Source of the DNA: Shigella phage phiL
Strand: one strand, 5' to 3'
Length of the DNA: 50,002 nt
Sequence record: PP134913
Made by a program: the position numbers and the translations under genes. The notes under the pieces were generated by a model, which was given only the letters and a program-made list of their open reading frames with translations, was not told the DNA's origin and ran no database searches. The number at the start of each line of letters is the position of its first letter. Position 1 is the stretch's first letter. This document shows positions 8,284-33,052 of this stretch, piece by piece.

Positions 8284-8307
8284 AAGGAGGCTAAGCCTCC
8301 TTTTTTT
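8284..8307. terminator. intrinsic terminator between converging plus early block and lysis cassette
   Basis: Hairpin GGAGGCTAAGCCTCC followed by 7 T. Confidence 0.65.
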
Positions 8308-8695
8308 CGCCCTTACGAATTGAAAAATAAACCAGCAACAGACCAATGAGAACGAGGGTCCAACCAACTATAGGATCATACCAGTTTCCGGGCTTAGTCA
8401 CAGTGATGCTTTCAGCGTTAACCGTGTTAGCCTTAATGGTTGACACTTCAATTGACTTCTTCACGGAAGAGTCAACCTTTCCTACATTGGACTTTTCAAC
8501 TTTAACATCTCGCTTATCTTCGGATTTTGCGGTTACTCCTGCTAATTGCTTTGTGTTCTCCTCTCCAATCTGTGCTGTAACTTCCGGTTTAGATCCGATT
8601 AAACCGCTCAGGGCAGATGGCATCGAGCAACCGGATAGAGAAATAACACCAACAGCCACTACAATCGCAATGCATGTTTTCTTCAGTTTCATCAT
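8291..8695 (-). CDS. unimolecular spanin (N-terminal lipoprotein signal plus C-terminal TM)
   Basis: Lipobox LSGC at N-terminus, hydrophobic segment [13 protein letters not shown] near C-terminus; last gene of lysis cassette. Confidence 0.65.
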
Positions 8696-28724: not shown

Positions 28725-31598
28725 TTAACCTCCTGTTTTTTCCTGAATGTAATTATAAACCTCGCCGCCCTGAGAACAAGACTCACGAATCATTTTTTTG
28801 AACATCATTTCTACACCCTGAGAAATGCCTCTCGGATCTGAACCGTTGTCAACTTTAACCTCCATACCCCTAACGTCAACGACCGTCCCACCTGCTGATT
28901 GGTTTACTGCCTTCGGCGCTGCTTTGGATGCGTTAAATCCAGATGTTGCCACACTACCAGATGCGGCAGCGAGCGAGGTAACAGCAACGCCAGATGATAA
29001 AGACCTAAAACCGGAGGCGGCAGGCGTAGGGGCTGCCTGTGATGCCGCAGAAGCACCAGACGACGCCACTCCAGCAAAGCTCCACGTCTTACCGCCCATC
29101 ATGCCTGAGATCGTATTGAAGATTACCATCTGAGCAATCATCTTTATAATCATGCTAATGATGTTTTTCGCAAAGTCCTCAAAGTTTGCCTTACCTGTAG
29201 TCAGGAATTGGGTCATCATATCACTCATTCCGTTAAGTGAACTTGACGCTATATCATATACGTTACCATACATATCCATTGCGGAATCGCCGTAATCTGC
29301 AAATGCGCTTTCAGCACCTGCCAACCAGTCAGCACGCTTGGCATCTTCCGCTGCATAGTAATCATTTTGTGCCTTGATCATGTTCTGGAGTTTTTCATCT
29401 CCTTCGCTGCCACCTGCATTAATATAATCAGTGGTGATCTTAGCCAACTCAGCTTGTCGTTCCATTTCTCGGGTGCTCATCCCGCGAGACGCGTTTAGCT
29501 GCTCTGTAGCTGCCGTCAAATCATTGACAAATTTCAGTGACTTATCGGTAAGATAGTTCAACTGCTGCTGCTTAACAATCTGATCGCCAATCTCAGCCTT
29601 CTGTTTCGCAAGCTCTAAAACTTTCTCCTGATTTGCAAGTAGTGATTTTTCTTCCGCAGACAACTGACGCTTAGAACTAGCCTCGCGAAGAACAGCGATC
29701 GTAGCCTCAGTAGTAAACAGCGCCTTTCTCTGCGCGGAAAGTTTTTGCCCGATCTCCTTGTGCTCCTGCAATACCTTAAGTTGAGCCTTGAGTGAAATTA
29801 GCTCCTTGTCGAATTGCTCTGTAGGTGAGCGTAAAATTTTCGACTGCTTATTTCGCTCACGGTTTCGCTTTTCGATCTCTTCAGCTTCTTCCTTGATAGC
29901 GTCCTTAGTTTCCTGGATGTACTGCTTCTCAATGGTACGACGCTGCTTCATTGCTTCAACGTATCCCATCTCACCTTTTTCAACACGGGCGTTAATGGCA
30001 TCAAGCTCTGAAGCCAACTGTTCGTAGTTGTCGCGAGAACTTTTTACGATGTTCTCCTGCTCCTTCAGCACATCAGCACCAAAATCACTCATACCAGGCA
30101 GGGATTGCGTGGCCTTGATTGCAGATGCTATAAAGTTTGAGATGTACTCATCACCCTTCGCTAGAATCATTTTTACCTGAATTACCGTCCCCTGAACTAC
30201 GTCAATAATCAGGTTTAATGCCCCGAGAGTGTGATCCCCAACCCACCCCCACGCATCAGAGGCCCACTGCTTAATATCGTTCCACATTTTTTCAAGAGGT
30301 GTGGCATTGTCTGCGATCGACTTCATTCGCTTTTCCATAACTTCGGCGAATAATTTCGTTGCTTCAGACACTGCTTCCGTTTCACCCTTAGTACGGCTTA
30401 GCGTATCGATATATGTCAGTTGTCCTTTTTCCAAAAAGTTGTATTGCTCGTTAAGTTTAGCAAGGCCCTTTACAGGATCGCTTGCGATTTTATCGAACTC
30501 AGCAATGATTTTACTTGCTGATTTTCCTGTTGCTGTAGACCACTCGGCGGTAGCTTTTGTGATGTTCTGAATCTGCTCTCGCGTATATTTCCCCGTGCTG
30601 GCAAGTTCAGTAACAATCTCACGAATGCTTGAAATTGTTGAGTTGCTCGTCTGAGCTACCTTTTTAGCAACAGAATCAAGGTCTTCAGCCGTGACTCCTG
30701 CATAACCTCCAGTCTCAACAAGAGCATTCTGCATATCAGTTATTGACTTGTAAGAGTCATAACCAGCTTTCGCGAGAAGACCTAACGAACCAACGAGAAC
30801 ACCAATACCTGCTGTGACCGGATTAATATAACTGAGCAATACCTTAAACGTGTTGCCGATACCGCCGAAAGAATCCTTAATCTGCCCTCCCTGCTGGATA
30901 GCAACCATCCATACAGGCATACCAGAAGCAAGAGACGTTACGACGTCTGTGATCTGCGCAGGAAGCATTCGCATTGCCTGCCTATATTGCCCTGCGCTAA
31001 TGCCTGCGGCATTCATTGCCCGACCCTGATCTTTCAGTTTTGCGATTAGTGGCGCTGCTTCTTTCGATAAGCCAAGCTCAGCCGCTTTCAGTTCCATCAA
31101 TTCAGCGTGAGTCTTGCCGATCGCGTTAACTTGACCATTCAGGGCATCCATGAATGCCTTGCTTCGTGCTGCCGCCTGTTCTTTTGCTTTCGCTTCCTGC
31201 AATGCCGCCTGGCCCTCTTCCGTCAGCATCGCCCGACTGCGAGCAAGTTTTGCGTTTTGCATATCCAGCATTTCACCTAAACGGAAAAACGTGTCATCTG
31301 GAATAACGCCTTGCTGCCATAGTTTATCAAGCTGCTGGGAAGCAACTTTTAACCTCTCCATTTTTGCAACTGTAGGATCGATTGCTTTCTCTACCGCTTC
31401 GTACTCTTTTCTCTGTCGCTTGAGTTGTTCTGCGTGTTCTTTAGCCTTCTGCTTCGCTACTTCTGCCTCATTGATTAAAGATCCCATAGAGTCAGCGGCT
31501 TGGTCGTTGGCCCTTGAAAACTCTTTCAGTGACTTGACGGCGCGCTGTACTGTTGACACGTCAACGTCAAGAGACAAACCTGCTACTTTATCAACCAT
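28725..31598 (-). CDS. tail tape measure protein
   Basis: 957 aa, coiled-coil rich, Gly/Ala/Ser-rich C-terminal segment; follows G/GT chaperone. Confidence 0.8.
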
Positions 31599-31615: not shown

Positions 31616-31635
31616 AAAAAACCGCCAAACGGCGG
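31616..31635 (-). terminator. intrinsic terminator between chaperone T frame end and tape measure start
   Basis: Hairpin CCGCCGTTTGGCGG followed by TTTTTT. Confidence 0.55.
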
Positions 31636-31636
31636 C

Positions 31637-32271
31637 TTAGTTATTCTGCTTAGCAATCATTTCAAGCGCTTTCGCTTCCATGATTCTAACGTCCTGCAAT
31701 GCCAGTTCTTCATCATCTATTTTATAGATTTTGAACAGCATAGGCAAAACATTATAGTCAAGACCATAAGCTCCAGCGCCTGAACTTCTCCACTGAGTGA
31801 GCATTGACGTAAAAACATTCCACGCCTTCACCATTTCAGCGTCGCCAATTATCGTTTCCGGTTCCTCGTCTTCATAGTCAGAAAGACTGAGGCCAACCGA
31901 TCGTAATTGCTCTTCTGTCGGCGGTTTCTGATATAACAGATAAACCGCCCGTTTTAGTTTTTTGCGCGGTGTCCGGCGAGCGCCTTGATGTAAGTTGCCG
32001 TCAGATTGTACGCTGCGGAAGGGTAATACTGTACCAGTTTACGCGCATTCTCTTCGTTAAATTCTTCTTCCAGATTCCACCCGGACGCGATCTTAGTGAT
32101 GAAATCGCTATCATTCATTTCTCCCTGTTTAGTGTACATATCCTGTACTTCTTTACTGGAAAGGTGGCGCACGGTAAAAATAATCGTCGCATCTTCACCG
32201 TTTGGCATGGTGAAAGTAACCGGAAGTTTGAAGTCTGGAAGCTGGCCCAGCACAAAATTGAATTTAGCCAT
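31637..32271 (-). CDS. tail assembly chaperone G-T fusion made by -1 frameshift
   Basis: -1 frame open from slippery site to stop at 31637 with no intervening stop. Confidence 0.5.
31954..32271 (-). CDS. tail assembly chaperone (lambda G-like)
   Basis: Between major tail and tape measure; ends with slippery A_AAA_AAC. Confidence 0.6.
   Translation of the reverse strand: MAKFNFVLGQLPDFKLPVTFTMPNGEDATIIFTVRHLSSKEVQDMYTKQGEMNDSDFITKIASGWNLEEEFNEENARKLVQYYPSAAYNLTATYIKALAGHRAKN
31957..31963 (-). other. -1 programmed frameshift slippery heptamer A_AAA_AAC
   Basis: Heptamer in G frame immediately before the G stop codon. Confidence 0.5.
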
Positions 32272-32290
32272 GATGTTCTCCTGATTGGTT

Positions 32291-32339: not shown

Positions 32340-32372
32340 CTACAGAAATGAAGAAGGGGGCGCAAGCCCCCT
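32340..32372 (-). terminator. possible terminator after major tail gene
   Basis: Hairpin GGGGGCTTGCGCCCCC followed by TTCTTCATTT (weak U-tract). Confidence 0.4.
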
Positions 32373-32383
32373 GTGGATGTGAT

Positions 32384-33052
32384 TTAGGCACCTGGAGATG
32401 CCAGAGTGGATGAGACGAAAGTAAAATCACCTTTCAGGGATACGGCGAGTTGTACTGTTTCCATTTCGTTCACTTGCGTAGATGGGATGTCGTTAAAAGA
32501 CAAGATGCCAGCCCACATGCGCATCTCGTTCGCTTTTGGAACATACATACGAACCGCAGTTACCTGACCAGAAGAATCCAGCTTACGCAGAATTGGGTAG
32601 ATCGGGTTATCAAATTCGTGCGCGAAGGTGTAGGTTAGTGAGATCGCGGATTTAAATGTCGGGATCTGCTGCTCCTTATCGTCGGACAAACACTGATAAG
32701 TGTAGTACTGCTGCTCGCCGCCGTCCTGACCAATCTCCTGCACGCATGGGATCTCAGTCCACCCGGTAATTTTTGCAAAGCTCATTGTCCCGCCAGCCGG
32801 AAAAACTAGAGTGTCAGAGGTGTCAATTCCAGCAAGTGTAATCTTTGTTTCCTGGGCGTCAGTGACAATTAGCACACGGCTAACCATTTTAGCCCACGTT
32901 GACTGAGTTACAATAACGTAATTACCTTTAGCTAAATCACCCTTAGATGCAACTGTAGCAACAGGCTGTTTTGCATTAGTAATAGCAGTTGCCTCGATCT
33001 CTTCTCCGCGAGAAGTTTCTACGAAAATTTGCGCGCCATTTGGTAAGTGCAT
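32384..33052 (-). CDS. major tail protein
   Basis: Upstream of G/GT and tape measure; AAAGGAGA RBS; terminator downstream. Confidence 0.65.
   Translation of the reverse strand: MHLPNGAQIFVETSRGEEIEATAITNAKQPVATVASKGDLAKGNYVIVTQSTWAKMVSRVLIVTDAQETKITLAGIDTSDTLVFPAGGTMSFAKITGWTEIPCVQEIGQDGGEQQYYTYQCLSDDKEQQIPTFKSAISLTYTFAHEFDNPIYPILRKLDSSGQVTAVRMYVPKANEMRMWAGILSFNDIPSTQVNEMETVQLAVSLKGDFTFVSSTLASPGA

Follow-up and report, generated by a model that had tools for sequence, protein, structure and literature searches.

A conserved G/GT-type frameshift signal predicted in the tail assembly chaperone genes of Shigella phage phiL

Between the genes for the tail tube and tape measure proteins of Shigella phage phiL lie two short reading frames in different registers, which raises the question of whether they are expressed as two independent proteins or as one protein and its frameshifted extension. 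We analyzed this locus in the window, i.e. the whole 50,002-nucleotide stretch of sequence record PP134913, where it is carried by the minus strand (Table 1). Judging from sequence comparisons, a -1 ribosomal frameshift on the heptamer A_AAA_AAC very probably makes the two tail assembly chaperones of the phage, G (105 aa) and GT (211 aa). The 1-kb region around the site is 99.3% identical to that of Shfl1 (Tunavirus, Drexlerviridae) and about 94% identical to that of T1 and of many more T1-like phages.

Table 1. Features of the G–T locus of phiL (positions in the window)
Feature	Position	Strand	Evidence or remark
Tail tube (major tail) protein gene, directly upstream of G	32384..33052	-	Pfam Phage_tail_3, E 3.8e-70; record annotation
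Terminator-like hairpin + T-run, after the tube gene	32355..32372	-	With 31619..31638, brackets the G–T unit; this site, too, is an annotated terminator in T1, Skenny, Stevie and Scapp
Shine–Dalgarno AGGAG of G, hence also of GT	32278..32282	-	20 nt 5' of G: CAACCAATCAGGAGAACATC
Gene G, 105-aa tail assembly chaperone (zero-frame product)	31954..32271	-	Translation; Pfam PF08748; Shfl1p43 in NC_015456
Slippery heptamer A_AAA_AAC	31957..31963	-	X_XXY_YYZ phase; G stop codon adjoins directly
T segment, 106-codon -1 extension, stop TAA 31639..31637	31637..31957	-	Translation; Pfam PF08809 DUF1799
Predicted 11-bp hairpin GGCGGUU..UCUG/CAGAAACCGCC, starting 7 nt 3' of the heptamer	31920..31949	-	RNA fold
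Internal ATG, public-record start of the separate 65-aa ORF Shfl1p44	31832..31834	-	Probably no real start
Terminator-like hairpin + T-run, between T and the tape measure gene	31619..31638	-	Rho-independent terminator annotated there in T1, Skenny, Stevie and Scapp
Tape measure protein gene (957 aa), presumed chaperone client	28725..31598	-	TMP_2, E 1e-73; Tape_meas_lam_C, E 7e-25; record annotation

The G frame runs from the ATG at 32271 to the TAA at 31956..31954 and ends GCA AAA AAC TAA. The -1 frame is already open 82 nt 5' of this stop codon and covers the whole 119-nt interval between the G stop and the internal ATG at 31834; a -1 shift yields a fusion of 211 aa, in which the first codon after the slip is CTA. 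The +1 frame at the slip site is shut after 25 codons. Translation thus bears out the coordinates and terminal codons that the initial annotation had given for G (31954..32271), as well as its statement that the -1 frame stays open from the heptamer to a stop at 31637, across the gap and the 65-aa ORF. Short and long products would share one ribosome binding site, and a single site common to both is indeed annotated in Skenny, Stevie and Scapp. Note that the third T codon, at position 31951 just 5' of the predicted hairpin, is CGG in phiL and AGG in T1 and Shfl1 (IMG/VR copy L052), a synonymous Arg change.

Both halves of the predicted fusion belong to recognizable families. G matches Pfam PF08748 (Phage_TAC_4) over the full model (positions 1–124 of 124) with an E-value of 3.4e-37 and 127.8 bits (cut-off 21.1). 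T matches PF08809 (DUF1799; E 2.6e-12, 47.2 bits, cut-off 26) over model positions 4–80 of 80, with residues 24–101; the internal Met is thus reached only 18 residues after the match has begun. A single profile, PHROG 17368 (213 positions), aligns with G over its first half and with T over the second, indicating that fused proteins are already present in this PHROG. The gene order (tube, G, T, tape measure and minor tail M, the last identified by Phage_min_tail) is that of lambda V-G-T-H-M. Structural approaches were uninformative: searching the PDB by sequence gave chance-level matches only (proteasome subunits, E about 0.08), and the single-sequence AlphaFold2 model of the GT fusion had a pLDDT of 43.7. 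As for the terminator-like hairpins that flank the G–T unit, partial termination 5' of the tape measure gene could contribute to the chaperone:tape-measure stoichiometry.

If T is read only as an extension of G, the interval between the G stop codon and the internal ATG should evolve as a coding sequence in the -1 frame. This is what we observed in an alignment of 66 distinct relatives. Column entropies at codon positions 1, 2 and 3 of the gap, counted in the -1 frame, were 0.68, 0.58 and 1.42, respectively, i.e. the third position was 2.1–2.4 times as variable as the other two, and this in the -1 frame only. Stop codons interrupted the -1 frame of the gap in 0/66 sequences, as against 52/66 and 66/66 for the other two frames. 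More specifically, the 41 codons 5' of the internal ATG are conserved as protein (LKRAVYL.YQ.PPTD). No ATG, GTG or TTG occurs upstream of position 31834 in the T frame, and the combination of a conserved -1 frame with the lack of a start codon means that the first 41 codons of T can be translated only by ribosomes coming from G. The internal ATG itself is not preceded by any SD-like motif, and its position is occupied by Met in 54 of the 66 relatives and by Ala in the other 12, the replacement being seen in the Webervirus lineage. The two-frame layout is widespread: in 1086 of the 1145 phage records retrieved by tblastn with the fusion as a query, the two halves were present as separate, neighboring pieces.

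The heptamer was then considered from two angles, its chance occurrence and its conservation. AAAAAAC is present 21 times in the window for 14.9 expected, an excess that is not significant by itself and that we dropped as evidence. By contrast, the combination of an in-phase heptamer with a long -1 extension exceeds chance: among the 44 in-phase X_XXY_YYZ heptamers found in the 61 putative genes of the window, only the G site is followed by such an extension (105 codons past the stop). The runner-up lies in the spanin gene (8291..8695, minus strand; PHROG 1804, Rz-like/u-spanin), which ends ...GGC GAA AAA AAG GAG GCT TAG and has an in-phase A_AAA_AAG near 8300..8306, 6 nt before the stop, with a -1 ORF of 33 codons and an extension of 30 codons. 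A_AAA_AAG is the most shift-prone heptamer in E. coli. Here, the A-run together with GGAGGC forms the 5' arm of a terminator hairpin (AAAGGAGGC TTA GCCTCCTTT followed by a T-run) and the -1 ORF runs beyond the terminator, i.e. beyond the transcript end; we rejected this candidate frameshift site as probably incidental.

Conservation was assessed at 88 slip-site loci, collected in two scans of viral contigs and from selected GenBank records. In 62 of them, AAAAAAC directly precedes the stop codon (60 TAA, 2 TGA), and T1, TLS, Stevie and dozens of other phages share both the heptamer and the stop. The site is thus not specific to this genome, contrary to what had been supposed from the phiL sequence. 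The remaining loci end GCA AAA GTT TAA (18/88, Webervirus), GCA AAG GTC TAA (5/88, L092 group) or, in two distant phages, CAA AAG CCT TAA and GAA AAG TAT TAA; in a single locus, L080, G ends without any slip motif. The latter contig, like two other IMG/VR contigs (L036 and L038), shows either scattered breaks of the G and T frames or A5 in place of A6 at the slip site, and these three apparent exceptions look like homopolymer errors of sequencing or assembly rather than true losses of the signal. The full heptamer is kept as far away as Dhillonvirus and an Aeromonas phage. Moreover, the -1 frame is closed by a TGA directly 5' of the motif in three phages, namely Dhillonvirus SECphi4, Aeromonas phage pAEv1818 and Serratia phage Scapp; no more than 7 nt of open -1 frame are left there ahead of the G stop, so that a shift is possible only on the motif.

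The pattern of synonymous choices at the end of G is equally telling. An A precedes the Lys codon in 79/79 distinct G genes, whether the codon that supplies it is Ala, Val, Glu, Thr or Gln, and the background frequency of A at the third position of Ala and Val codons is 27%. The neighboring Arg codon, on the other hand, drifts among its synonyms CGA, CGC, CGG and CGT. All the 57 distinct genes ending in Lys-Asn use AAA AAC and none uses AAT (background frequency of AAC, 68%). Altogether, the strictly invariant element among relatives is a core shorter than the heptamer, namely an A_AAR Lys core placed two codons ahead of the stop, which was found in all 79 distinct G genes. The description of the site as canonical, made in the initial annotation, is therefore somewhat generous: the site does follow the X_XXY_YYZ pattern, but A_AAA_AAC is a low-efficiency site in E. 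coli (PMC4066793) and the A_AAR core alone is invariant. The broader claim of a G/GT tail-chaperone frameshift just upstream of the tape measure gene, with products of 105 and about 210 aa, is backed by the protein families, gene order, coding signature and conservation and very probably holds.

The following scheme can be proposed. A single mRNA with a single ribosome binding site would serve for both G and GT. The majority of ribosomes would terminate at the TAA 31956..31954 and release the 105-aa G, and a small fraction would slip backward by 1 nt on A_AAA_AAC (31963..31957) and then read 106 further codons in the -1 frame, giving a 211-aa GT made of a Phage_TAC_4 domain and a DUF1799 domain. 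In lambda, G binds the tape measure protein, as does GT through its G part, the tube protein is bound by the T part of GT, and both chaperones are absent from the virion; the GT:G ratio is low and fixed, with a G:GT ratio of about 30:1 (PMC5009743). By analogy with lambda, the tape measure protein of phiL would be coated by G and, through its G part, by GT, the T part of GT would recruit the tail tube protein, and neither chaperone would be found in the virion; the frequency of slippage would set the low GT:G ratio needed for correct tails. Slippage is itself deduced here, and a frequency of about 1 to a few % is to be expected. We likewise infer the tRNA mechanics (a tandem Lys/Asn slip or a slip of Lys alone), the binding partners and any enhancement by the hairpin or the stop codon. 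Our literature searches returned no study in which GT had been detected experimentally in a T1-like phage.

A first alternative concerns the mechanics of the slip and leaves the products nearly unchanged. The tRNA-Lys paired with A_AAA may shift alone, as on tetramer-type sites, perhaps with the help of the stop codon, the AAC codon being passive; the junction would then be ...RAKK-LKR... instead of the ...RAKN-LKR... produced by a tandem slip. Since A_AAR is the only invariant element (A followed by an AAR Lys codon in 79/79 distinct genes, always two codons before the stop), this is a serious variant of the mechanism. Along the same line, Webervirus (AAA GTT TAA), the L092 group (AAG GTC TAA), HJK1 and Scapp have no second slippery codon, and since several lineages do without the full heptamer, the tandem-slip model is not universal among the relatives. 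Studies in E. coli also provide some support: tetramers rank A_AAG > U_UUY > C_CCY > A_AAA, the rest being lower, and re-pairing of the AAC-decoding tRNA with AAA is badly tolerated, so that the efficiency of a tandem slip may be very low (PMC4066793). Against a passive AAC, however, stands the exclusive use of this codon in the 57 Lys-Asn endings, which suggests that the seventh base or codon matters too, as well as the retention of the full heptamer in the distant Dhillonvirus and Aeromonas phages and the presence of an identical heptamer in IS1. On balance, we regard a slip of the Lys tRNA alone as possible but somewhat unlikely for phiL.

A second alternative is that the shift takes place during transcription. 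RNA polymerase would add an extra A in the run of six A, placing G and T in frame in some mRNAs; one added A would indeed give the same 211-aa fusion, with a Lys at the junction, and transcriptional slippage is employed by some bacterial and IS genes (review PMC5009743). This explanation sits badly with the fact that the motif keeps its phase within the reading frame among relatives, since phase matters to a ribosomal mechanism only. Furthermore, Webervirus, the L092 group, HJK1 and Scapp keep the two-frame layout with only 3–4 A, a run too short for such slippage, as productive polymerase slippage usually requires about 7–9 or more identical bases. We therefore consider transcriptional slippage very improbable. 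Finally, the notion that no recoding takes place, i.e. that T is a separate protein of 65 aa with its start at the ATG 31834 and that the open -1 frame upstream is fortuitous, is hardly credible, for although two separate ORFs appear in the public annotation of Shfl1, T1, SH6 and Henu5_2 and a Met is found at the internal ATG position in most distinct relatives (54/66), the 41 upstream codons are conserved as protein with a coding periodicity and zero stops, the DUF1799 match starts upstream of this ATG, the ATG has no SD and is missing in Webervirus, and the synonymous positions of the slip site are frozen.

Returning to a -1 ribosomal frameshift on A_AAA_AAC, we looked for elements that might stimulate it, such as the conserved RNA structure 5–9 nt 3' of the slip site that characterizes frameshift signals of the dnaX/IS911/IS3 type. 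The predicted hairpin 3' of the heptamer has a fold z-score of -1.7 against dinucleotide shuffles, and it is more stable than expected from synonymous recodings of the same peptide in phiL (p=0.017). The latter test gave p=0.001–0.003 in TLS-like lineages, these lineages being related and the tests therefore not independent, and detected no excess of structure in L083, L092, L108 and Scapp. Pairing was retained in 74% of the cells over 57 sequences. RNAalifold predicted no consensus structure across the relatives, and for this reason we rate the hairpin as lineage-limited: it is a possible frameshift enhancer, as far as folding predictions go, of some lineages only. We also looked for an internal SD-like stimulator about 10 nt 5' of the slip site, and found no GGAGG-like motif in the corresponding segment of phiL (GCCGGACACCGCGC), a region that is variable among relatives.

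The position of the stop codon adjoining the slip site, for its part, is invariant across the relatives. One may imagine that the A_AAR Lys codon, the codon that follows and the stop form a functional cassette rather than a merely inherited layout, in which the stop, perhaps acting as a 'shifty stop', and with it the hairpin in some lineages, tunes a low-efficiency slip. The layout of this would-be cassette is held in 79/79 distinct genes, down to a G identity of about 30%; we nevertheless regard this reading as speculative and rather improbable. Were it true, the phiL signal would represent a termination-coupled variant of the G/GT signal, unlike that of lambda.

The tail-chaperone frameshift of phiL is already known in the sense that it is annotated in sister genomes, and its site is conserved across Drexlerviridae and beyond. 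In TLS (NC_009540), tfmS is a two-piece joined CDS that crosses gta aaa aac taa aac ggg cgg; joined frameshift CDSs are also annotated in Citrobacter phage Stevie ('tape measure chaperone') at the same sequence and in Skenny and Scapp at the homologous place. The conserved frameshift of T1-like phages is mentioned in genome papers (PMC4319613, PMC6763657, PMC8104045), including those on Stevie and Skenny, and the U136B paper cites Xu et al. 2004. The public records of close relatives give a different picture. In both Shfl1 (NC_015456, p43/p44) and T1 (NC_005833, ST40/ST39), the two chaperone ORFs are labeled 'tail length tape measure protein' and the fusion is omitted; the T ORF of T1 is annotated even shorter, at 168 nt. 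Such labels, apparently taken over from PHROG names, are annotation errors, and they spread over many T1-like records. The practical value of the present analysis is that Shfl1, T1 and the records derived from them should list a chaperone of 105 aa together with a frameshift product of 211 aa. Note also that some 20 records named 'Campylobacter phage' (e.g. MG065641 A14a and MG065657 C4; host C. jejuni) are T1-like, with genomes of 47–50 kb and a GT identity of 58–63%. C. jejuni is a surprising host for such phages, and contamination or mislabeling may be involved.

Comparison with these annotated systems shows how closely phiL follows them. The tfmA/tfmS genes of TLS and gp15/gp16 of Stevie (both Tlsvirus) occupy the same position relative to the tube and tape measure genes, their G proteins are 51–54% identical to phiL G and their T segments are homologous; the signal is identical in both, hairpin arms included (gta aaa aac taa aac ggg cgg ttt atc tg), and we noted no substantive difference. 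Klebsiella phage Skenny (Webervirus, gp38/gp39) likewise has homologous G and T proteins encoded at this position; unlike in phiL, the sequence there is GCA AAA GTT TAA, with the A_AAA_G core only. The phiL heptamer also has a counterpart outside phages: A_AAA_AAC is the proven natural low-efficiency -1 site of IS1 insA-insB' in E. coli, for which a stimulator is not established (PMC4066793). IS1 and phiL have in common the heptamer and the need for little fusion protein; they differ in the product, a transposase versus a chaperone, and in the context, an insertion sequence versus a phage morphogenesis operon.

The reference for a locus of this kind remains that of lambda. The programmed -1 frameshift producing lambda gpG and gpGT was reportedly described by Levin et al. 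in 1993 and by Xu, Hendrix and Duda in 2004, 2013 and 2014, and the 2004 study of the latter authors is said to have defined a G/GT-type class of frameshifts for the tail assembly chaperones of long-tailed phages. What was found in phiL corresponds to this class: a pair of ORFs between the tube and tape measure genes, a T frame without its own start, an in-phase slip site and conservation of the arrangement in relatives. As in phiL, the lambda ORFs are flanked by the major tail and tape measure genes, with ORF number two read in the -1 frame and devoid of a start of its own; the slippery heptamer is located near the end of G and includes a Lys/AAR-type codon, and the downstream order is H-M. 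The differences lie in the signal and in the proteins. In lambda, the heptamer is G_GGA_AAG and is located within a 61-nt overlap window, with 15 nt between its end and the G stop, whereas A_AAA_AAC adjoins the stop in phiL; to our knowledge, no requirement for a stimulator has been reported at the lambda site. Lambda T overlaps H, whereas phiL T is separated from the tape measure gene by a terminator-like hairpin. The lambda proteins belong to Phage_TAC_2 (PF06894) and Phage_tail_T (PF06223), those of phiL to Phage_TAC_4 and DUF1799; phiL G and T gave no Pfam match to PF06894 or PF06223, which lambda itself does match, and hhalign probabilities between the respective families were 0.4% and 0.9%. 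Sequence and gene order thus point to a phiL locus that would work like lambda G/GT, yet is no sequence relative of it, and biologically the locus would be another case of the conserved G/GT strategy by which the stoichiometry of two tail assembly chaperones is fixed.
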